From: Candidatus Saccharimonadota bacterium
GTDB taxonomy: Bacteria; Patescibacteriota; Saccharimonadia; Saccharimonadales; Saccharimonadaceae
Direction: 5' to 3'
Length of the DNA stretch: 32,000 bases
Assembly (NCBI GenBank): GCA_001897305.1
Contig: MKSO01000001.1
Coordinates: forward strand, 300,001 to 332,000
The first letter of the stretch is position 1. Each line of letters opens with the position of its first letter. Shown one piece after another: positions 8,554 through 26,499 of the stretch. A model generated the notes under the pieces. It was not told the DNA's origin, ran no database searches, and saw nothing but the letters and a program-made list of their open reading frames with translations. A program made the position numbers and the translations under genes.

Positions 8554-9327
8554 CTAACAGGGGCCGCTGGTAATACGATGTGTTTCGTCGACGTGCCAGA
8601 TGATATCGGATATGCCCGAAATAGTGCCTTCGGCGCAGTAGTATGCCGTTGTTTGAGGCGTACCAAGCGGTTCCTGCTTTACTCCCCCGTTGGAGTCGTT
8701 CGCCCAGTAGTCCCAGAAAGTCGTGATTGGAAAACTGCCACCTTGTTTTTCTTGACGTTCAACTAGTTGTGTGTAGAAATTTTTCACGACACCCTCTTGG
8801 GCTTTGTTCCAGCTGTCGCTAGTGGTGAATGAGGTGGCGTAGTTTAAGAGTTGATCCTTTTGGACGGGAGTGGACCACTGTTTTGTATTCCAACCAGTAA
8901 TTTGAGTGCTGTTGTAGTTCCAATTTCCGCATCCAGTTATGTACGATTGCGTTGTACCGCCTTTATCTACCCCCTTGCCGACTCCCTCGTTTATGAGGTC
9001 TTGGCAGATCTGGGCGAATAGAACGCCATTTTGTACTGGAGTAAGGTTGGTGTAATAGTTAGAAGTCCCCGCTGACTTAACTGCTATGGTACTGTTACGA
9101 GAAGTTTCAAAGTCGGACGGCAGGCTTGTTGGGTACAACCCGGAGTGTTGAAATTCGTGCTGCATTTCGGAAGCGGCATGGTCCAGATCACTTTTAAGAG
9201 AAGCTGTCATAGCGCCGCGCTGAATATTGCTATAGCCAATGACCGATATGGCAGCCAAGATACCAATAGCGGTTACAACCACTATAATTTCAACGATAGT
9301 AAATGCCGGTGCCCACCGATGTGTCAT
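8554..9327 (-). CDS. Type IV pilin-like protein (prepilin-type N-terminal cleavage/methylation domain)
   Basis: The N-terminus MTHRWAPA|FTIVEIIVVVTAIGILAAISVIGY has a short basic leader, F+1, E+5 and a hydrophobic alpha-1 helix. Position -1 is Ala rather than the canonical Gly. The gene begins 29 nt downstream of topA. Confidence 0.7.
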   Translation of the reverse strand: MTHRWAPAFTIVEIIVVVTAIGILAAISVIGYSNIQRGAMTASLKSDLDHAASEMQHEFQHSGLYPTSLPSDFETSRNSTIAVKSAGTSNYYTNLTPVQNGVLFAQICQDLINEGVGKGVDKGGTTQSYITGCGNWNYNSTQITGWNTKQWSTPVQKDQLLNYATSFTTSDSWNKAQEGVVKNFYTQLVERQEKQGGSFPITTFWDYWANDSNGGVKQEPLGTPQTTAYYCAEGTISGISDIIWHVDETHRITSGPC

Positions 9328-9356: not shown

Positions 9357-11795
9357 TTATTTTTTGGCTGTTTTACGACGGGCAAAACGACCCTTAGCTT
9401 CTGGAGCTTCGGCGATGAGTTGTTTGGCTTGTTCGTGGGTAATTGTTTTAGGATCGGTATCTTTAGGAATTTTGGCATTCTTTTTGCCATCGGTAATGTA
9501 AGGGCCGTAGCGACCATTGAGCACTTTAATACCATCACCAAAATCGGCAATATTTTTCTCGGCTTCAGACTTTAACTTTGCGGCGTAGAGCTCGAGGGCT
9601 TCTTCGTGGGTAACGGTATGTGGATCAAGGGGCTTAATGCTAATAAATAACTTGGTTTTTGTTTCTGGGTTATCTACTTGGATATAAGGGCCAAAACGGC
9701 CAATGTTGGCTTTCATTGGTAACCCTTCGGGTGTTTCACCGACAAGTCGAGGGAGTTGGAAAGCCTTAAGGGCTTGTTCTAGTGTGACGGTATCAACACG
9801 TGCGCCTTTTGGTATTGGGGCGAATTGAGGTTTTTCTTCACCTTCGGTGTCACCTAGTTGTAGCATCGGGCCAAAACGGCCAAGTCGGGCGTAGATCATT
9901 TTGCCAGATTTAGGATCGGTACCAACAGGGGTAGCTTGGGCAACTTGAGAGCGATCGATACCCCCAGAATTTTCAATGAGTTTATGGAATGGGGTGTAGA
10001 ACTTTTCTAGCATAGCATTACGTGCCAGTGCACCTGTGGCGATTTGGTCAAACTCTTGTTCGACGTCGGCGGTAAAGCCGTAGTTCACAATTTGTTCAAA
10101 ATGGTCACCAAGAAAGTCTGCGATCATCATGCCAACTGAGGTTGGGACGAGCTTGCCCTTATCGGCACCGGTCTTTTCTTGAATTACGGTGCGAACAACA
10201 CTATCTGAACCGATTTCTGCGGCTTGGCTTCGCTCCGGGTCTTTACGGGCGCCAGCGTCCCGTTCAGACTCGGGCTGCAGAGTCGCCGAAGAAATGGTGT
10301 CAGATGGTGTTGTCGAGCCAACGCTCAAGACAATAACATCGCGCTCGGTACCTTCACCTTCACCCTTTTCGGCGTAGCCGCGAACCTGGACGGTATTAAT
10401 AATAGTGGCATAGGTTGAAGGACGGCCGATGCCAAGTTCTTCAAGCTTTTTAACGAGTGAACCTTCGGTGTAGCGTGCTGGCGGTCGGGCAAAGGTTTGA
10501 CGAGCGTCGGCGTGCTCGAACCCGAGGATATCGCCCGTAGTCATGGCTGGGAGAATGTCTGGATCTTTTTTGCTTGCGCCGTAGACTTTAAGGAATCCAT
10601 CAAAGATAATAACTTCGCCTTTTGCTTCAAAATGAAGGTCGCTGGTGCTAATGGCAATAGTTACGACGGTTTTTTCTAGCTTGGCGGGTGCCATTTGGCT
10701 AGCCAGGGTGCGTCGGCGAATAAGATCGTAGAGCTTTTGGTCGTATTGGTCGCTACTGACCTTTTCGGCGGTAATGTCGGTAGGACGAATAGCCTCGTGG
10801 GCTTCTTGGGCACTAGCTGATTTAGTTTTAAATTGGCGTACTTGAGAATATTCTTTCCCAAAGCTACTCGTAATGTAATCGGCAGCCGACGCCAAAGCTT
10901 GTTTACTAAGGACTGTTGAGTCGGTACGCATGTAGGTAATTTTACCCGCCTGGTAGAGCTTTTGGGCGCTCGCCATAGTGGCGCGGGAGCCAAAGCCAAG
11001 CTTACTGTTGGCCTCTTGTTGTAATGTACTGGTAGTAAATGGCGCCCCTGGGTTGCGTGTGCCTGGGGTGGTGGTAACACCGGAGACGGTAAAGGTGGCC
11101 TGCTTTGTGAGTAGCGAGAGGAAATCATGGGCTTCTTCTTCGGTATCGAACCGTTGTGGCAATTCGGCCTTTACGGTCGCCTCTTTATGAGTGAATTCGG
11201 CTGTTACTTTAAATTGGAATGAACCTTCGAATTTCTGGATTTCTCGTTCTCGCTCTACCAAAAGGCGCACGGCCGGTGATTGTACACGTCCAGCAGATTT
11301 ACCGCCAGGGACTTTTTGCCATACGACGGGGCTAAGTTCAAAGCCTACTAGACGGTCCAGGATTTGACGCGCTTGTTGCGCTTGTACAAGCTGCATATCA
11401 ACCGTGCGAGGGCTCTTAACAGCTTCCTCAATGGCCGATTTGGTAATTTCGTGGAAGACAATACGATTCGTTTTTGCTGGGTCAAGGCCAAGCACTTCGC
11501 ATAAATGCCAAGCAATAGCCTCTCCTTCGCGGTCTTCATCGGTTGCCAGCCAGACGGTTTCGGCGGTTTTAACGGCTTTTTTGAGTTCGGTAATGGTTTT
11601 CTTTTTTTCAGTGTCGATTTCGTAGGTAGTAGCAAACCCCTTAGTAACATCGATGGGCGGCGTGCCGTCTTTAGTCTTTTTTGCAATTGACCGAATGTGA
11701 CCAACACTTGAGAGCACCGTAAAGTCTTTACCAAGGTATTTCTCGATGGTTTTAGCTTTGGCTGGGGACTCTACGATGACTAAATTCTTTGACAT
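9357..11795 (-). CDS. topA: DNA topoisomerase I
   Basis: The Toprim N-terminus is MSKNLVIVESPAKAKTIEKYLG. Further topA-like segments are ...ATDEDREGEAIAWH and ...YMRTDS (catalytic Tyr region). The C-terminus has repeated GRFGPY/GRYGPY motifs with no Cys4 zinc fingers. Confidence 0.95.
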   Translation of the reverse strand: MSKNLVIVESPAKAKTIEKYLGKDFTVLSSVGHIRSIAKKTKDGTPPIDVTKGFATTYEIDTEKKKTITELKKAVKTAETVWLATDEDREGEAIAWHLCEVLGLDPAKTNRIVFHEITKSAIEEAVKSPRTVDMQLVQAQQARQILDRLVGFELSPVVWQKVPGGKSAGRVQSPAVRLLVEREREIQKFEGSFQFKVTAEFTHKEATVKAELPQRFDTEEEAHDFLSLLTKQATFTVSGVTTTPGTRNPGAPFTTSTLQQEANSKLGFGSRATMASAQKLYQAGKITYMRTDSTVLSKQALASAADYITSSFGKEYSQVRQFKTKSASAQEAHEAIRPTDITAEKVSSDQYDQKLYDLIRRRTLASQMAPAKLEKTVVTIAISTSDLHFEAKGEVIIFDGFLKVYGASKKDPDILPAMTTGDILGFEHADARQTFARPPARYTEGSLVKKLEELGIGRPSTYATIINTVQVRGYAEKGEGEGTERDVIVLSVGSTTPSDTISSATLQPESERDAGARKDPERSQAAEIGSDSVVRTVIQEKTGADKGKLVPTSVGMMIADFLGDHFEQIVNYGFTADVEQEFDQIATGALARNAMLEKFYTPFHKLIENSGGIDRSQVAQATPVGTDPKSGKMIYARLGRFGPMLQLGDTEGEEKPQFAPIPKGARVDTVTLEQALKAFQLPRLVGETPEGLPMKANIGRFGPYIQVDNPETKTKLFISIKPLDPHTVTHEEALELYAAKLKSEAEKNIADFGDGIKVLNGRYGPYITDGKKNAKIPKDTDPKTITHEQAKQLIAEAPEAKGRFARRKTAKK

Positions 11796-11941
11796 ATATA
11801 TAAGTATACTTGGGGTTTCTAAATTACTGCTTAAGTTTGGACGACAAGTCGTCGTGCTTTACACAATGCTGGAGTGTACACCACGTATGCCTAGTTTGTA
11901 AAGCGCAGCCCTTTATATGCCAAGTATTTGAAAATGAAGCA

Positions 11942-11963
11942 CCCACCCCCCGGAAGGGGTGGG
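11942..11963 (-). terminator. GC-rich hairpin downstream of the 154-aa acidic-protein gene
   Basis: An 8-bp stem (cccacccc/ggggtggg) with a 6-nt loop lies 13 nt past the stop. On the minus strand it is followed by GTGCTTCATTTTC, a weak U-tract. Confidence 0.4.
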
Positions 11964-11975
11964 CAGTTGCTTCGA

Positions 11976-12440
11976 TCACTCGGAGGAATCGTCGCGCACG
12001 TCTCGGATTGCTTTGCCGACGTCGTACTCGTCGAGGAACGCGCGCAGCTTGCTGTTGGTACGGCGCATGGTCTCTGCGCCGTAGCGTAGTGCTATTGCCT
12101 CGATGCTCAGGGGCTCGATGGTGTCGCGAGCCGGGTTGAGCACCCCGTATGAGCGACGGTGCTTGAGCGTGTCGTGGAAGAAGACGATATCGCCCTCTTC
12201 CTCGCCCAGCTCGTGGAGAACGAGTACCCGCAGGCGTGACTCGCTCGGATCCTCGCCGAGGATGCCGGCATCGTAGGGTTCGATGCCGAGATCCTCGTGG
12301 TCGGTGTCTGCCAAGAACTCTTGCAGGCCGTTGCGGGCGGCATTGTTGGCGTGGAAGATCCCCTGGAGTTCGAGCTCCTGGGGTGTGGCGTCCTTGACGG
12401 GCACGTTCAGCGGGTCTCGCTCTTCGGGGGCATCGGACAT
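11976..12440 (-). CDS. Hypothetical acidic cytoplasmic protein in a GC-rich island
   Basis: The 154-codon ORF has AGAGGA 7 nt upstream of its ATG. Nearly every codon ends in G or C, unlike its neighbours. Hand counts of two 60-nt lines give 58% and 63% GC. The other five ORFs listed over 11810-12522 are high-GC frame artefacts. Confidence 0.6.
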   Translation of the reverse strand: MSDAPEERDPLNVPVKDATPQELELQGIFHANNAARNGLQEFLADTDHEDLGIEPYDAGILGEDPSESRLRVLVLHELGEEEGDIVFFHDTLKHRRSYGVLNPARDTIEPLSIEAIALRYGAETMRRTNSKLRAFLDEYDVGKAIRDVRDDSSE

Positions 12441-12510
12441 GGAGATTCCTCTCGTTGGTGGTCGAAGGTCGTACGGGCCTCAAGCTGTTACGCAAGGCCT
12501 GTATAATATT

Positions 12511-12539
12511 ATTATAGCATAAAAGCTATTAAATATCAA
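12511..12539 (-). promoter_or_regulatory. Sigma-70-type promoter with extended -10 for the acidic-protein cassette
   Basis: The minus strand reads TTGATA, then a 17-nt spacer (tttaatagcttttatgc), then TATAAT. It starts immediately after the dprA stop codon. Confidence 0.5.
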
Positions 12540-13406
12540 TTATGGAGTAATAAACAAACGTCCCCCACTACTTTTAATTTGACCCTTTAATTCCATGTGA
12601 GTAACGGTTTGTTGAAGCTCTGAAAGCGACGTGCTGAGCCTCTTGTGTAAGCTATCGATTGTTACGGCGCCCTCTTGTATGTATTGCACTATTTTGGCTT
12701 CGAGGGGTGTGTCACCCAGCACCAGGCGCATTTGCCTGTTGGTGTCCGAAGGCATGAGTATGCGCAAAATATCCTCCGGCTCTAAAGCAACCTGTGCGCC
12801 CTGTTGAATGAGCCGATTTGGCCCAGCAGAAAGTAGGCTGTCTATTGGCCCGGGGATGGCAAAAACGTCTTTGTTTTGAGTGAGAGCATGCGCCACGGTT
12901 GAAAATGTGCCACTGCGGTCGGTTGCTTCTGTTACCAGTACGGCATCGGCTAAGCCGCTGACTAGGCGGTTGCGAGCTAGGAAATGATATTTATGTGCAT
13001 CTACGCCAGGCGCTTGTTCGCTAATAAGAGCCCCACCTGCTACGACGATACGCTGAGCAAGTGAGGTATGTGCGGCTGGGTAAATACGATGAAGCCCGTT
13101 TGCCAGTATGGCTATGGTGGTGCCGCCGGCATCTAAAGCCGCCTGGTGGGCGATGGCGTCTATGCCGTAAGCTAGTCCGCTAATTACAACCACTCCCCTT
13201 TGCGCTAGTGCTGTCGCAAAGCGTTTGGTGACCTCTTCGCCATACGCCGTTGGCTTGCGTGACCCTATAATTGCAATGGTTGGCGGGTGATCTTTTGGTA
13301 ACGAGCCTATAGTATACAACTCGGATGGCATCCCCTCGTAGTTACTTAAAACAGAGGTGAAACTGCTTATAGCTATACTTTGTCTATTGATTTTCCCTAT
13401 TTTCAT
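12540..13406 (-). CDS. dprA: DNA processing protein A (Smf/DprA)
   Basis: The segment IGSRKPTAYGEEVTKRFATALAQRGVVVISGLAYGIDAIAHQAALDAGGTTIAILANGL shows the typical DprA Rossmann-like core. The protein is 288 aa. Confidence 0.9.
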   Translation of the reverse strand: MKIGKINRQSIAISSFTSVLSNYEGMPSELYTIGSLPKDHPPTIAIIGSRKPTAYGEEVTKRFATALAQRGVVVISGLAYGIDAIAHQAALDAGGTTIAILANGLHRIYPAAHTSLAQRIVVAGGALISEQAPGVDAHKYHFLARNRLVSGLADAVLVTEATDRSGTFSTVAHALTQNKDVFAIPGPIDSLLSAGPNRLIQQGAQVALEPEDILRILMPSDTNRQMRLVLGDTPLEAKIVQYIQEGAVTIDSLHKRLSTSLSELQQTVTHMELKGQIKSSGGRLFITP

Positions 13407-13425
13407 GTCTACCTTAGAAAAACTA

Positions 13426-13454
13426 TTGACACAACGTCAACTAGGTGCTATAAT
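13426..13454 (+). promoter_or_regulatory. Perfect consensus sigma-70 promoter, divergent from dprA
   Basis: TTGACA is at 13426-13431 and TATAAT at 13449-13454, separated by a 17-nt spacer that ends in TGc (extended -10). Confidence 0.55.
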
Positions 13455-13460
13455 GACATA

Positions 13461-13841
13461 CGATTGATACAGCAAACACCGCTGCATCAAGCACCTTATA
13501 CCCCCTATTTCTAACGGTAGTTACTATTTATAGTACTGCCAATGTTAGGTAGTGTGCAAGGCGCTTTTAAAGTACCTACCCTCCACTTTTCTAGCTTTGG
13601 GTTCATCCCACGACAGCTTTGCATGCTTACTAATCCCTTTAACACCTTGTCTTTTAGGCGAGGATCCCGTTTAAAGAATATCAATTGGGTGACTATACAG
13701 TAGTGGTTGGGACTCTGCGAGGTTCAACCAGGCGCGCACCATACAAAGTCTATCGGTTCGCGACGCTTCACTAGATATTCTTGGGTGGGTTAAAGGGTAA
13801 AATGGCACCAGGTGATGCCCACCCTTACCTGGTGCTTTTTT
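13461..13841 (+). ncRNA. Candidate ~380-nt non-coding RNA of unassigned class
   Basis: The unit is bounded by the consensus promoter (13426-13454) and an intrinsic terminator (13805-13841). I found no ORF with an RBS. The downstream gene has its own promoter at 13855-13884. I could not match RNase P, tmRNA or SRP signatures by eye. Confidence 0.3.
13805..13841 (+). terminator. Rho-independent terminator
   Basis: A 9-bp stem pairs gcaccaggt (13805-13813) with acctggtgc (13827-13835) around a 13-nt loop, followed by TTTTTT (13836-13841). Confidence 0.6.
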
Positions 13842-13854
13842 ATTTGGAAAATTT

Positions 13855-13884
13855 TTAACACCCCCTACAGAGAAATGATATAAT
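13855..13884 (+). promoter_or_regulatory. Sigma-70-type promoter for the 231-aa membrane-protein gene
   Basis: TTAACA, an 18-nt spacer and TGaTATAAT (extended -10) lie about 78 nt upstream of the ATG at 13962. Confidence 0.45.
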
Positions 13885-13961
13885 AAAAGGATTGTTGCTA
13901 CTTTGCAACACGAACCTGGTTGTGAGCGACGCTTGCGGCCCTGACCTTTGGAGGTATAGCA

Positions 13962-14657
13962 ATGGATCGGGAGGAGGAAGATAAGGCCTTCGAACTGTCC
14001 GATGCGGTCACTATCAGCCAACCGGACTATGTTCCGGTATCGCGACGCGAGGCAGAAACGCCGACTGAGCCGCTCGATATTATCGAGGAAGAGGTTGAGG
14101 TGGCAGCTAGTAACGTCGCGTCCTCTGACGAGGGCGACACGATCCTGTACTGGCATCGACGCCACATTAAGGCCCTTGCTAAGAGGCTGTGGTATCCATG
14201 GTGGTACGGCGTAGGTGCTGCCATGATCGTGGCCTGTGTAGTAACTGCCCTTCTGGGTGTTGCTACATTCGAGATACTGGCCACCTTTGTGGTCGCCGTA
14301 CTGGTGGCTCTCGTATGTTATAGCTATCCAATCGCCAGAGAGATACACCGCTGGCGGTACACGATCATTGCGGTGGTCGTGAATGGCAGTAATGCCTGGA
14401 TCAAGCTCTACGAGCCTAAGAGTCGCTTTTTTGCGTTCAAGGGTGACGACGAAGGCAGTGCCTATCCTCTAACGGCAGTTACCTCCATTAAGCTGAACAA
14501 GCAAACCTGGTGGGAGCTCTACGTTTTCCGTAGCAGTGGCTACGGATCGATCGACACCGTCCTACAAGAAGATGAGGACTTGCACAACCTGAAGGATGTG
14601 TATCGTCCAAAAGAATTGAAGGAGGCACTACAGGAAGCGATTCGACTCACAACTTAA
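13962..14657 (+). CDS. Hypothetical membrane protein (acidic N-terminus, two TM helices, soluble C-terminal domain)
   Basis: GGAGG lies 7 nt upstream of the ATG. The TM region is LWYPWWYGVGAAMIVACVVTALLGVATFEILATFVVAVLVALVCY. GC is elevated (one hand-counted line is 60%). The overlapping antisense ORF 13671..14348 is rejected. Confidence 0.6.
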   Translation: MDREEEDKAFELSDAVTISQPDYVPVSRREAETPTEPLDIIEEEVEVAASNVASSDEGDTILYWHRRHIKALAKRLWYPWWYGVGAAMIVACVVTALLGVATFEILATFVVAVLVALVCYSYPIAREIHRWRYTIIAVVVNGSNAWIKLYEPKSRFFAFKGDDEGSAYPLTAVTSIKLNKQTWWELYVFRSSGYGSIDTVLQEDEDLHNLKDVYRPKELKEALQEAIRLTT

Positions 14658-14660
14658 TAG

Positions 14661-14700
14661 CCCCGAGAGAGCTCCGAGATATCGGAAGAGCTCCTCGGGG
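14661..14700 (+). terminator. Long GC-rich hairpin after the 231-aa gene
   Basis: ccccgag (14661-14667) pairs with ctcgggg (14694-14700). An inner gagctc/gagctc helix (14669-14674 with 14688-14693) adds to the stem. The downstream T-run is weak (cactttt). Confidence 0.45.
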
Positions 14701-14719
14701 CTCTCTCACTTTTGCGTAT

Positions 14720-14748
14720 TTGCTAACAAACTAACAAGATGGTATAAT
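14720..14748 (+). promoter_or_regulatory. Sigma-70-type promoter for the 84-aa membrane-protein gene
   Basis: The sequence reads TTGCTA, a 17-nt spacer, then TGgTATAAT. Confidence 0.45.
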
Positions 14749-14791
14749 TATATTAGACGTGACGAAACGTTCCTCGAGCGAAAGGTAAAAC

Positions 14792-15046
14792 ATGAACGCC
14801 TCGGTATCCCTGGCTGATGTGGTGATCGTCCTTCTGGCGCTGCTGGTGATGATAACTCCCTGGCTTCCGTCAAAGGGAAGGTTCATCGCATCAGTGCTCA
14901 GCGTGGTGACTGTTGGAGCACTGATCCTGTGGTGTGACAACGCCACGTGGATCCATTGGGTCGAGTTCCTGCGTACCTGCTGGTACGCACTGCTGGTTCC
15001 CTTCTTCGTGTTCCTGGTCGGTATCTTCGCGTCCAAGTCCAAGTAG
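14792..15046 (+). CDS. Small hypothetical membrane protein (about 3 TM segments)
   Basis: The 84-aa ORF has GAAAGG 6 nt upstream of its ATG. Hydrophobic segments are VVIVLLALLVMITPW, VLSVVTVGALILW and YALLVPFFVFLVGIF. Confidence 0.5.
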   Translation: MNASVSLADVVIVLLALLVMITPWLPSKGRFIASVLSVVTVGALILWCDNATWIHWVEFLRTCWYALLVPFFVFLVGIFASKSK

Positions 15047-15080
15047 ATCACGCTTCGGCGTCCATGCTTGGCATCAGGGT

Positions 15081-15113
15081 GGCGGCTGAGGTCCCTTCGG
15101 GGATCTCGCCGCC
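15081..15113 (+). terminator. GC-rich TTCG-loop hairpin between the 84-aa gene and the pth stop
   Basis: ggcggc-t-gaggtccc pairs with gggatctc-gccgcc around a ttcg loop. There is no strong U-tract. Confidence 0.4.
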
Positions 15114-15129
15114 GCCCGCGCTTCAACTT

Positions 15130-15699
15130 TTAGACTTCAATTTTAAAACTGTGTGCCTCAAGGGTACCGGCTGAGAACTTTTCAAGAATCTGCAATAGCT
15201 GCGGAATAATGGCCTCGTTGAGGCTTTTTTGTTCTTCTGAGGTAAAGGCGCTGAGTACAAAGTTGGCATCGTCCATACGGTCGCGTAGTTCGTTCCAAAT
15301 GCCTACCCGTATGCGACTGTAGTCAGTACCAAGGTGGGCATTGAGGCTTTTGACGCCATTGTTACCTGCATCACTGCCCTTGTCGCGAATGCGAATGGTG
15401 CCAAATGGCAAGGCAAGTTCATCATGAATAACAAGTACATCTTCGGCTGGGGTAAGTTTGTAAAAATCTACTACCGCCCGCGCAACTTGGCCGGTTTCGT
15501 TATAAAACGACCTCGGCTTTATGAGTAGAACTTTTTCACCGTTCTTCGTAAATTCAGCAATATCAGCGTTATATTTAGTCTCCGTGCGCCAAGCACTTCC
15601 CTCTTGGGTAGCTAAGGCATCGAGTACTAGAAAGCCAACGTTATGGCGAGTGCGGGCATACTGAGCGCCTGGGTTACCTTGGGCGAAGATGAGTTTCAT
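15130..15699 (-). CDS. pth: Peptidyl-tRNA hydrolase
   Basis: The N-terminus MKLIFAQGNPGAQYARTRHNVGF is typical of Pth, as are the later segments ...IRIRDKGSDAGNNGVKS. The protein is 189 aa. Confidence 0.95.
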   Translation of the reverse strand: MKLIFAQGNPGAQYARTRHNVGFLVLDALATQEGSAWRTETKYNADIAEFTKNGEKVLLIKPRSFYNETGQVARAVVDFYKLTPAEDVLVIHDELALPFGTIRIRDKGSDAGNNGVKSLNAHLGTDYSRIRVGIWNELRDRMDDANFVLSAFTSEEQKSLNEAIIPQLLQILEKFSAGTLEAHSFKIEV

Positions 15700-15758
15700 A
15701 CTGTTATTGTACCGTATCTAGGATCACAAAGAGAAATGAGAGAGCGACATCTGTAGAA

Positions 15759-15787
15759 TTGATTTTTAAAGCTTTTTATGCTATAAT
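15759..15787 (+). promoter_or_regulatory. Sigma-70-type promoter with extended -10 for the 154-aa membrane-protein cassette
   Basis: The sequence reads TTGATT, a 17-nt spacer (tttaaagctttttatgc), then TATAAT. It is nearly identical to the promoter at 12511-12539. Confidence 0.5.
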
Positions 15788-15838
15788 ATTAACATAGACT
15801 TACACTAGTCTGTCTTGCACATCCAACGAGAGGCAAAT

Positions 15839-16303
15839 ATGGGAATTGAGACAATGATTCCGGCGTGGATCTGTTTCGTGCTGGGCGTGAGCTTCCTGTG
15901 GGTAGTTCATGTCGTAAGTATGCGACGGCTCAAGCGCTGGGCGACGGTCAACGAAGTCTTCCACTCCGCTACGTATTACGGAGATACCCCTGGAACGGCG
16001 ACGGTGATCGTTCGGAATGCCCGCAACTACATCATGGTTCGCACGCTGAGCCTGGTGGTGTTGCTGGCTGCTACGTGTGGCATCACCTGGCTTTTTTGGT
16101 GGTTCGCCGTGACCGATCAGTACACCAGCCAGCCGTTTATCTTCTGCACGATCATGTCGATGGCCGTTTTGGTTGTCATAACGATCGTGGGTGCACGCAT
16201 CATCTACCGAGGTATCGAACCGACGATGCGTGAGAGGGGGTATCGGCCTCATCGCCAGGAACGGCAGTCCGACCCAACCCGAGAACATCTAATGGAGCCA
16301 TGA
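15839..16303 (+). CDS. Hypothetical polytopic membrane protein (about 4 TM segments)
   Basis: I prefer the ATG at 15839 (GAGAGG 5 nt upstream) over the track start at 15815. TM segments include IPAWICFVLGVSFLWVVHVV and LSLVVLLAATCGITWLFWWF. One hand-counted line is 60% GC. The antisense ORFs 15800..16288 and 15865..16233 are rejected. Confidence 0.55.
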   Translation: MGIETMIPAWICFVLGVSFLWVVHVVSMRRLKRWATVNEVFHSATYYGDTPGTATVIVRNARNYIMVRTLSLVVLLAATCGITWLFWWFAVTDQYTSQPFIFCTIMSMAVLVVITIVGARIIYRGIEPTMRERGYRPHRQERQSDPTREHLMEP

Positions 16304-16359
16304 GGAGTACCTCTCCGGGGCTGCCTGCAGGTAGTTCTCGGAGGCCCCTCTGTGCAAGT

Positions 16360-16379
16360 GCTCGCCCTTCGGGGCGAGC
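16360..16379. terminator. 8-bp GC stem with a TTCG tetraloop between convergent genes
   Basis: gctcgccc-ttcg-gggcgagc lies between the plus-strand gene ending at 16303 and der ending at 16410. Confidence 0.45.
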
Positions 16380-16409
16380 CTTCCATTTGTGGGGATATTT
16401 TTGTATCTT

Positions 16410-19141: not shown

Positions 19142-20209
19142 TTAAAGACTTGGCGGAATGTTGGCGTTGTTAGGTGTGTTGAGCTCTTGTTGCATTTGGC
19201 TGGCGAAGTCTGCGTTGCTAGGGTCGTTAGGGTTAGTTAAGGGCTCGATAACGCGATCACCGAGTGAAGCTGGTGCTGGGGTTGAAAATGGCGCAGTTGG
19301 TTGCGGCAGAGTTGTCGCTGCTGGCGCTGGGGCTAGTGGAAGCTCGCTAATAACCGTACTTTGCGGAACAGCCGGAGCGGGTGTGGGTGTTGGTACGGCA
19401 GGAGCTGCTACTGGAGCCGGAGCTGGTGCAGTCACGGGTGCTGGCTGTGGTGTGAGTGGTGCGGCACTATCGGGGATAGTGAGAGGATCTGGGACGGCTG
19501 CTGGGGTTGGAGTTACAGGAGCTGCAACTTCTGGTTGTACTGGAGCTACTGCAACCGGCGCTGGTGCTGGAGCTGGTTGAGGTGCAACTGGCGCTGGGGC
19601 CGCTGGCATGTTAACAATTGGCGCAACGGGCTGAGGTGCTGGCTGTGCACTGTAGGCCGGGTTCTCTGCTGGCTGTGGTGTAACTGGAGCAACTGGAGCG
19701 GGCACTGGAGTTACAGGAGCTGCAACTTCTGGTTGTACTGGAGCTGCTGCAACCGGCGCTGGTGCTGGAGCTGGTTGAGGTGCAACTGGCGCTGGGGTCG
19801 GAGCTGGTGTTGGCGCAGGAGCTGGAGCAGACCCTGGAACACCATCACCAAGAACATCGTGTACAGTACGTACGACATCTTCGATGCCGACCTGCGATTT
19901 TACAAGATAACGATCAGCGCCGAGGGCTTCGCCGCGAGCACGTTGGTCATCACTTGATAGCGCGGTCATCATGATGACTTTTACGTCGCGAGTTTCCGAG
20001 GTGCTACGAAGAATGTCGAGCATATCGAAGCCACTAATTTTAGGCATCATAACATCACTGACGATAAGGTCGGGACGTTCTTTGATTGCCATTGCTAGGG
20101 CTTCTTCACCGTCACCAGCCGAAACGATCTCGTACCCTTCGGCCATGAGTCGTACGCCGTATATCTCGCGTAGGCTCTTGTCATCTTCTACCAATAAAAT
20201 CTTCGCCAT
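19142..20209 (-). CDS. Response regulator with a receiver domain and a ~235-aa Pro/Ala-rich C-terminal extension (no recognisable output domain)
   Basis: The receiver segment is MAKILLVEDDKSLREIYG...DLIVSDVMMPKISGFD...K. I prefer the start at 20209, which has AGAGGT upstream. The C-terminus is low complexity (APAPAPV..., PQPAP...). Confidence 0.85.
   Translation of the reverse strand: MAKILLVEDDKSLREIYGVRLMAEGYEIVSAGDGEEALAMAIKERPDLIVSDVMMPKISGFDMLDILRSTSETRDVKVIMMTALSSDDQRARGEALGADRYLVKSQVGIEDVVRTVHDVLGDGVPGSAPAPAPTPAPTPAPVAPQPAPAPAPVAAAPVQPEVAAPVTPVPAPVAPVTPQPAENPAYSAQPAPQPVAPIVNMPAAPAPVAPQPAPAPAPVAVAPVQPEVAAPVTPTPAAVPDPLTIPDSAAPLTPQPAPVTAPAPAPVAAPAVPTPTPAPAVPQSTVISELPLAPAPAATTLPQPTAPFSTPAPASLGDRVIEPLTNPNDPSNADFASQMQQELNTPNNANIPPSL
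19508..19797. repeat. Two 92-bp direct repeats, 198 bp apart, inside the Pro/Ala-rich coding region
   Basis: 19508-19599 and 19706-19797 are identical except for one position (19548 a versus 19746 g). Both encode APVAPQPAPAPAPVA(A/V)APVQPEVAAPVTP. Confidence 0.9.
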
Positions 20210-20260
20210 AATTACCTCTATTCTACCTAAGTGTGTCAAAAAATACCATACTGCTTATGT

Positions 20261-26424: not shown

Positions 26425-26499
26425 TGGTGATCCCACCGGGAATCGAACCCGGATTGCCAGGATGAGAACCTGGTGTCCTAACCGTTAGACGATGAGACC
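26425..26499 (-). tRNA. tRNA-Glu (anticodon CUC), CCA encoded
   Basis: The minus strand reads GGTCTCATCGTCTAACGGTTAGGACACCAGGTTCTCATCCTGGCAATCCGGGTTCGATTCCCGGTGGGATCACCA. It folds by hand into a cloverleaf with a 7-bp acceptor stem (2 G-U pairs), a D arm and the anticodon loop TTCTCAT. It also has a 4-nt variable loop and the T arm CCGGG-TTCGATT-CCCGG. Confidence 0.9.

Follow-up and report, generated by a model that had tools for sequence, protein, structure and literature searches.

The gene considered here is an open reading frame (ORF) of 154 codons, running from ATG to TGA on the minus strand (11976..12440) between dprA and topA, in a 32,000-nucleotide (nt) stretch of a Candidatus Saccharimonadota genome (contig MKSO01000001.1, positions 300,001 to 332,000), which is called the window below and whose numbering is used throughout. 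The gene is a strong outlier against the core genes and is typical of a clade-wide class of orphan genes rich in GC at third codon positions (GC3). It is probably a native, fast-evolving orphan gene of Saccharibacteria located in a variable slot, with a GC3-rich style maintained in situ. As this style is family-wide and typical of the orphans of the clade, it is not the scar of a recent import. In the proposed scheme, the gene would be a monocistronic cassette with probably strong expression, indigenous to a single subclade of Saccharibacteria and occupying the slot from the dprA stop codon to the topA promoter, and the translation of its product may be tuned by the leader.

Composition of the Gene

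The gene has a GC content of 0.630, with 0.71, 0.38 and 0.80 at the first, second and third codon positions (GC1, GC2 and GC3), in a window with a mean GC of 0.477. The GC3 of the 28 other large ORFs of the window ranges from 0.25 to 0.69, being 0.47 for dprA (12540..13406) and 0.45 for topA (9357..11795). These two genes were identified through their orthologues in L001, an 890,918-bp contig that is the closest genome fragment, where dprA (80% identical) and topA (91% identical) carry the Pfam domains DNA_processg_A and Toprim/Topoisom_bac, respectively. Followed in 50-nt windows, GC is at least 0.56 throughout from about 11925 to 12499, and only 0.18-0.38 in the promoter. Relative to the core baseline of about 57 related loci, where core genes stay within a standard deviation (sd) of 0.03 around the locus mean, the gene has an excess of +0.33 in GC3, which is far beyond chance. 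The sequence-only reading had described a GC-rich, GC3-skewed single gene between topA and dprA, and both the description and the outlier status agree with these values.

The codon counts show the same preference, with TTC, CAC and TAC used to the exclusion of their T-ending counterparts (5:0, 5:0 and 4:0), AAC in a ratio of 5:1, seven ATC and no ATT, and neither AGA nor AGG. The product is acidic, having an isoelectric point of 4.56 and 34 aspartate plus glutamate (D+E) versus 17 lysine plus arginine (K+R) residues. Its annotation as the coding sequence (CDS) of a 154-aa orphan protein is based on the ORF call and composition, on the 77% identical orthologue of L001 and on an AlphaFold2 (AF2) model. 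An overlapping 223-aa ORF in another frame (11824..12495; GC1/2/3 of 0.70/0.64/0.44) was discarded as a frame artefact of GC-rich sequence, because the 154-aa frame is the one kept across species.

Family A and Its Divergence

The relatives of the gene, together called family A, are few and confined to one group of bacteria. The word-indexed search of 5.8 billion clusters returned only a 99% variant (P0001) and the 77% orthologue (P0002), and an exhaustive phmmer search of 1.84 billion representative proteins gave eight clusters at E ≤ 1e-3, namely P0001 and seven distant members of 146-175 aa with 30-40% identity. One further member, P0010, was added by a word-indexed profile search. Every one of the eight clusters with usable context is from Saccharibacteria and lies upstream of topA, and the nine members that were measured share the same composition (GC 0.61-0.66 and GC3 0.74-0.85, compared to a flank GC3 of 0.45-0.57, with arginine far above lysine). 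This distribution speaks against the transfer from a high-GC actinobacterial donor that had been proposed for the gene, and it is the result that the sequence-only reading had itself listed as a refutation; no actinobacterial relative of family A was found among the 1.84 billion representatives.

Other collections were equally silent. The 154-aa protein has no match in the Pfam, NCBIfam, PADLOC and PHROGs hidden Markov model (HMM) libraries, none in a sequence profile search of the PDB at E ≤ 10, and none by tblastn at E ≤ 1 in phage and plasmid collections; a scan of viral contigs gave no relative, and a scan of metagenome contigs with a four-sequence alignment recovered known members only. 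Direct tblastn with the window protein matched none of 52 genome loci from GTDB species representatives. By hmmsearch, the slot gene of one such representative, L014a, is a divergent family-A member (E 1.4e-9) that shares only the C-terminal half of the family. Three other slot genes, L038a, L051a and L013b, have no significant profile match to family A (hhalign E of 0.085, 0.51 and 0.87, respectively); L038a keeps the 'VxF...YG' strand motif.

The window topA is 65-84% identical to the topA of 50 Saccharibacteria species representatives. Regarding the pair formed by the window and L001, the 154-codon gene has a rate of nonsynonymous substitution (dN) of 0.142 and of synonymous substitution (dS) of 0.62, with a dN/dS of 0.23, and the flanking genes are saturated at synonymous sites (dprA, dS 1.70 and dN/dS 0.08; topA, dS 1.73 and dN/dS 0.03). 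These ratios show that the protein is under purifying selection, weaker than that on dprA and topA. Within family A, identity is 0.77 for the window and L001 pair and 0.27-0.37 for all other pairs. In dprA the same comparisons give 0.80 (window and L001) and 0.58-0.70 (all others), and in topA 0.91 and 0.85-0.89. Judged from these identities, the family-A protein diverges much faster than its two neighbours. The sole resolvable node, which joins the window and L001, is congruent in family A, dprA and topA.

The dprA-topA Slot Across Saccharibacteria

The position of the gene is constant wherever its flanks were recovered. P0002, P0005, P0003, P0007 and P0008 all lie directly upstream of topA and downstream of dprA on Saccharibacteria contigs, and the order dprA, slot gene, topA is kept in every member with usable context (L001, L062/L074, L065, L067 and L070/L075). 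In L069, the contig stops short of topA, and P0009 is preceded there by a dprA-like ORF and a second small ORF. In the window, L001, L062 and L067 no other gene shares the slot with the family-A gene, and the second slot gene varies where there is one, being of family C in L065 and L069 and a PnuC plus an AAA_28 protein in L070.

In the loci keeping both dprA and topA, from which the slot contents were judged, the slot is empty (about 100-190 bp) in L010, L016, L018, L020, L021, L034, L041, L044 and L047-L049, and in the others it is filled by small same-strand ORFs, one or several. An all-vs-all phmmer comparison of these ORFs gives at least three orphan families plus unplaced singletons: family A, with the window gene and its relatives; family B, with L012a/b, L013a, L015a, L017a and L061c/d; and family C, with L011a, L065a and L069a, to which L054a probably belongs by its C-terminal LLPxGHxL motif. 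None of the slot ORFs of families A-C, or of the singletons, has a Pfam domain. The accessory status expected for the gene is thus borne out, the junction being empty in several related species and holding other genes in many others. The comparison of the junction among relatives gives a divided answer to the sequence-only reading, as the site is variable and in several species empty, but the gene is not a recent gain, since it is found at the same site in L001 and at least five further species.

The GC3 of the slot genes is 0.81 in L011, 0.85 in L014, 0.89 in L038 and 0.86 in L051, these being the closest relatives, and mostly 0.65-0.89 in the slot orphans of other genomes. GC-richness is not universal among slot genes, because L054a has a GC3 of 0.33. 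Families B and C have their own untranslated regions (UTRs), different from those of family A. The family-C genes (L065 3323-3808, L069 933-1340, L011 5273-5773 and L073 1-130) share a C-terminal LLPDGHxLK motif and have a conserved 3' element of their own, in which GTCACC..GTGGCGGAAAtTCCGTCC precedes a hairpin.

The slot of L061 also contains a transposase of the IS1595 family (2307-3185; DDE_Tnp_IS1595, E 1.3e-31) with a GC of 0.65 and a GC3 of 0.91, adjoining two family-B genes. As a clue to a donor it was dropped, being less than 40% identical to any plasmid-borne copy. No tRNA lies near the cassette, the sole tRNA of the window being at 26425-26499, and no direct repeats flanking the cassette were found.

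In the empty junctions, the dprA stop leads straight into a block formed by the topA promoter and leader, which is conserved (GCTTTACAAA...GTGTACACT...) and likewise stands downstream of every filled slot. In the window, the promoter scan places the topA promoter (TTTACA-18-TACACT) at 11873..11902 on the minus strand, outside the cassette, as the downstream boundary of the slot. The promoter with the 5' UTR (GCTTTACAAA-N17/18-GTGTACACTCCAGCGTTGTGCAAAGCACG ... AGTATACTTATATATATG) covers 11796-11902, and the same block is found in L001-L073. The 5' UTR block, shared by many Saccharibacteria species, contains a short hairpin, which reads GCACGACGAC...GTCGTC in the window, and may be a regulatory leader of topA.

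Promoter, Leader and Terminator of the Cassette

The gene had been described as a self-contained cassette, and its promoter, ribosome-binding site (RBS), CDS and terminator were all found, on the minus strand. The promoter, of the sigma-70 type, is TTGATA-17-TATAAT with an extended -10 box (TGCTATAAT) at 12511..12539; it has 11 of 12 consensus matches plus the upstream TG in the consensus scan and begins one base past the end of the dprA ORF (12540). The same scan found three promoter-like sites in the region compared to 0.5 expected. Slot genes of L001, L014, L038, L051, L065, L067 and L070 are preceded by the same type of promoter, and TGCTATAAT-like boxes are widespread in the window, being a general strong-promoter form and not specific to the cassette. 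Because such boxes are common across the window, the promoter of the cassette is of native style.

The 5' UTR contains a hairpin, P1, at 12473..12502, seen in the minimum free energy (MFE) fold of the window leader and through covariation in alignment A2, which comprises 11 leaders, those of family A plus L038 and L051, whose proteins have no detectable homology to family A. Six of the eight pairs of P1 show compensatory changes in this alignment, and paired cells amount to 95.3% versus 79.5% in shuffled alignments, with none of 500 shuffles reaching the observed value, and to 20-48% in slid registers. It is followed by a CTTCGA motif (12462..12467), invariant in A2 and located 15-25 nt ahead of the RBS. 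In the MFE fold of the window leader this motif pairs with the CGAGAGG region of the RBS, and in several other leaders its partner is an upstream GTTCGAGG instead of the RBS, so that CTTCGA is a possible anti-Shine-Dalgarno or alternative-helix element, and its two pairing partners suggest alternative leader structures controlling translation. The RBS itself, GAGAGGA (12447..12453), was read from the sequence 6 nt ahead of the ATG, and a purine-rich RBS stands at the equivalent position in every aligned leader. TTCGAA or CTTCGA as a genome-wide uptake-type motif was considered and dropped, as TTCGAA occurs 11 times compared to 9.7 expected, and the enrichment of CTTCGA is mild, with occurrences mostly within coding sequence.

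Downstream of the gene, the 3' element at 11929..11975, an intrinsic terminator by terminator scan, fold energy and conservation, consists of TCGAAG, a GC hairpin (11965..11940) and GCTTCATTTTCA, which has a single occurrence in the window. The hairpin starts about 11 nt past the stop, has 11 bp with seven GC pairs, is followed by CTTCATTTTC and folds at -26.6 kcal/mol (z = -3.4). The element is kept in 12 loci, including L013b, as TCGAAG, a GC hairpin and GCTTCATTTTC, where the flanking motifs are near-invariant and the hairpin arms alternate between GCCCACCCC/GGGGTGGGT and CCGGCCC/GGGCCGG; in the loci then in the set, the pattern matched only straight after the slot gene on the same strand. 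The leader hairpin and the terminator element are more conserved than the protein. Rfam gave no match at E ≤ 1 on either strand of 11700-12700.

GC3-Rich Orphan Genes of the Clade

For the comparison of GC3, ORFs were called in the window and in 56 related loci and grouped by the number of other genomes having a homologue, the core being those found in at least 25. Core genes are very uniform, with an sd of 0.025 for their deviation from the locus mean (delta-GC3) in the close clade, and the rare and singleton ORFs of L010-L061 and the window have a heavy tail of high GC3. In the close clade, the 29 ORFs exceeding a delta-GC3 of +0.2 are all rare or singleton, with no core gene among them. These 29 ORFs are spread over the pth-dprA interval, the dprA-topA slot and the region downstream of topA. 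Nine of ten that were tested have no Pfam match, the tenth being the IS1595 transposase of L061.

The pth-dprA interval (13407-16400 in the window, and also L001, L004, L062 and others) carries variable orphan ORFs of raised GC3 on the opposite strand, such as 13962..14657 (GC3 0.60) and 15815..16303 (GC3 0.68), with their own TGnTATAAT promoters at 13876, 14740 and 15779. The content of this interval differs between L001 and L004, and the slot gene is identical in both.

Imports from Actinobacteria are expected to match known domain families often. Known domains being few in the GC3-rich orphans, a wholesale host-derived origin is argued against. Since the flanking genes have reached saturation at synonymous sites between carriers, neutral decay should have largely erased any donor signature, and the persistence of a GC3 of 0.74-0.85 in every lineage despite those saturated flanks therefore suggests that the high GC3 is maintained in situ. 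Two candidate causes of this active maintenance are considered. The first would be synonymous-site selection acting on a gene of high expression, with C near-exclusive over T in most two-fold pyrimidine-ending codons, and the codon counts of the gene fit selection for C-ending codons. Pfam scans of the window gave no highly expressed housekeeping genes with which they could be compared. The second would be repair with a GC bias, acting at a slot prone to recombination in an organism that is naturally competent.

Origin of the Cassette

A native origin with GC3 maintained in situ is the probable explanation, and several points weigh against it. Bacterial accessory genes are usually AT-richer than the core, and GC-richer ones being unusual, a foreign GC-rich gene pool is still plausible. 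The GC1 of 0.71 and the excess of arginine over lysine are also GC-shifted, as expected of a gene that had long resided in a genome of high GC. That the dS of the gene is below that of its flanks could mean a more recent exchange between the two lineages, and no function of the 154-aa protein is supported by homology.

The composition could also have been brought in long ago, by the capture of the gene in the ancestor of the subclade from a high-GC donor (an actinobacterial host, or a phage or plasmid of that host) that is unsampled or has itself lost the gene, followed by vertical descent with the donor composition largely kept, although this is unlikely. Such a history agrees with the GC3 of 0.80, the GC1 of 0.71, the predominance of arginine over lysine and the lack of AGA/AGG, as well as with the absence of the family from relatives having a topA below about 80% identity. 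Cultured relatives live on high-GC Actinobacteria, and the IS1595 transposase of the L061 slot (GC3 0.91) indicates that GC-rich mobile DNA does land there. However, neither the 1.84 billion representatives nor the plasmid, viral and phage sets yielded a homologue outside Saccharibacteria, the cassette has a promoter and leader in the native style, and nine of ten other GC3-rich accessory ORFs have no Pfam domain, unlike typical actinobacterial imports. Moreover, with flank dS saturated and the nine members still at a GC3 of 0.74-0.85, a maintaining force would be needed here too.

Rather unlikely is a cassette-exchange hotspot, where cassettes or their coding parts are swapped among Saccharibacteria by transformation and homologous recombination, by way of either the conserved flanks or the leader and terminator, which are conserved as well, and where the high GC3 would be a side effect of GC-biased gene conversion. 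In its favour, the slot content is patchy, with families A, B and C, tandem combinations or nothing; L038a, L051a and L013b have the leader or 3' element of family A with proteins of no detectable homology; L014a shares only the C-terminal half; and the dS of the gene is below that of its flanks. Besides, dprA lies next to the slot, and natural competence is a trait of the phylum, as described for Saccharibacteria (PMC10187176). Nevertheless, the only resolvable node, that of the window and L001, agrees in family A, dprA and topA, and the apparent non-homology could be extreme divergence, in view of the low-confidence model of P0011, where the secondary-structure elements come in the same order, and of the 'VxF...YG' motif of L038a. 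Families B and C also have their own UTRs, so each unit looks like a gene evolving with its UTRs.

A related idea, improbable as it stands, treats the slot as an expression site, in which a fixed frame made of the promoter, the leader with P1 and CUUCGA, and the TCGAAG-hairpin-GCTTCATTTTC terminator would receive unrelated GC3-rich CDSs swapped in by transformation. If it were true, the GC-rich codon style would be due to biased conversion at hotspots, or to an adaptation of the products or genes to a high-GC actinobacterial host.

The recent and direct transfer of an actinobacterial gene from host to symbiont, with a product that would serve as DNA mimic or immunity factor, is very improbable. 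The organism does belong to an episymbiont lineage, Saccharibacteria, as the sequence-only reading had supposed for such a transfer, and TM7i, a relative in culture, is grown on Leucobacter, an actinobacterium (PMC9894109). What favours the transfer is only the compositional anomaly and the acidity of the window protein, and these are outweighed by the 77% orthologue at the same site in L001 with flanking dS saturated, by members of about 30% identity (27-37%) occupying this site in no fewer than five more species, and by the lack of any actinobacterial homologue. The acidity is not family-wide, no partner gene is present in the window, L001, L062 and L067, PADLOC gave no match, and no fold match was found to Ocr, ArdA or any other structure.

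Finally, the view that the GC-rich stretch is a non-coding or structural element with an ORF open by chance, suggested by the long ORFs in several frames of this GC-rich DNA, is effectively refuted by the strong three-base periodicity (GC1/2/3 of 0.71/0.38/0.80), the frame kept across species with a dN/dS of 0.23, the invariant residues of a profile-detectable family and the confident AF2 model.

Protein Structure and Possible Function

The AF2 model, built on a nine-sequence alignment, has a mean predicted local distance difference test (pLDDT) score of 87.5 and a predicted template modelling (pTM) score of 0.77. It consists of an N-terminal extended segment with a conserved RDPLxVPVxEAT motif, a helix (20-44), a sheet of four to five strands (54-111) and two further helices (113-120 and 122-152), from which the product is inferred to be a soluble alpha/beta protein. 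Foldseek gave no relative in the PDB (best E 0.38) or in BFVD (best E 0.17), with template modelling (TM) scores below 0.3. For P0011, of the L051a type, the single-sequence model is too poor to be used (pLDDT 36.6); the order of its secondary structure, at this low confidence, resembles that of family A.

A DNA-mimic or anti-restriction role (Ocr, ArdA), one of the functions put forward for the acidic product from its sequence, is weak and has no support, as the acidity is not conserved in family A, where D+E/K+R goes from 34/17 down to 18/17 in P0003, and the model has no structural relative, just as the sequence has no match. The immunity or antitoxin role proposed at the same time fares no better, toxin-antitoxin and effector-immunity pairs being unsupported because no constant adjacent partner gene exists. 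Considering the rapid divergence, orphan status, patchy presence and strong expression signals, the product might be an abundant binding or inhibitor-type factor in conflicts between symbiont and host or symbiont and phage, which is a guess and a doubtful one.

Other Features of the Window

Downstream of topA, the genes at 4565-7258 and 8554-9327, both on the minus strand, are conserved in relatives. They encode a pilin-like protein (N-terminal FTIVEIIVVVTAIGILAAI) and an 897-aa coupling ATPase of the VirD4/TrwB type (TrwB_AAD_bind, T4SS-DNA_transf), and therefore functions in DNA uptake or transfer cluster around the slot.

A block of low GC (0.30-0.42) at 70-3100, on the strand opposite to the backbone genes, looks like an integrated filamentous or single-stranded DNA (ssDNA) phage-like element. 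Its ORF at 1970..2704 (plus strand; GC 0.32, GC3 0.25) matches the replication-protein family REP_ORF2-G2P (E 3.6e-15), and another at 896..1543 (plus strand) has a P-loop, GHQGAGKT. This block has a stronger claim to being foreign DNA than the 154-codon gene.

There is also a second GC peak at 19142-20239 on the minus strand, highest at 19200-19800 with a GC of 0.60-0.62 and a GC skew of +0.33 to +0.37, which corresponds to a low-complexity tail rich in proline and alanine (PAPAPxPAP...) in a response-regulator protein. It derives from amino-acid content and not from codon choice, because GC1/2/3 are 0.73/0.55/0.37.

Significance

The analysis removes a tempting but unsupported case of host-to-episymbiont transfer, and shows that compositional outliers of Saccharibacteria are not readable as imports without homology evidence. 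Lineage-restricted orphans that are GC-richer than a very uniform core are modestly unusual, being the reverse of the AT-rich accessory pattern. In addition, a variable slot beside the competence gene dprA offers an example of regulatory RNA elements outlasting protein conservation. If the GC3 is actively maintained, these genes would be a natural system for the study of synonymous-site selection or biased conversion in ultra-small competent symbionts, and the fast-evolving slot proteins are candidate host-interaction or anti-phage factors in a group where most genes lack a known function.

Comparison with Known Systems

Hotspots for the integration of accessory genes occur between conserved core genes in bacterial chromosomes, and the fixed dprA-topA interval, empty in some species and occupied by different unrelated small genes in others, resembles them. 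The slot differs from these hotspots in lacking an integrase, a tRNA and direct repeats at its borders. Its inserts are single genes, each equipped with a promoter and a terminator of native style, and they are GC-richer than the core. The units are also similar to integron cassettes, being small, with a single ORF in the same orientation, an imperfect inverted repeat at the end and a sometimes tandem arrangement (L065, L069, L012, L013 and L061). They differ in that a separate promoter and leader accompany every unit (the promoter of the window gene matching the consensus at 11 of 12 positions), that no integrase gene or domain is present among the window ORFs scanned with Pfam, and that the 3' element acts like an ordinary terminator hairpin.

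Regarding the DNA mimics Ocr and ArdA, the window protein is likewise small, strongly acidic and adjoins a gene that processes incoming DNA, but the acidity of the family is not conserved, the predicted alpha/beta fold has no Foldseek match, and no sequence match was found to a PDB chain, PADLOC or PHROGs. Some leaders that control translation, such as RNA thermometers and the expression platforms of riboswitches, sequester the Shine-Dalgarno sequence. The leader of the cassette differs from them in having no Rfam match, covariation support for P1 only, and RBS sequestration that is not consistently predicted across the leaders; it resembles them in its arrangement, where a covarying hairpin is followed by a pyrimidine-rich CUUCGA that pairs either with the RBS or with an upstream arm containing GAGG.

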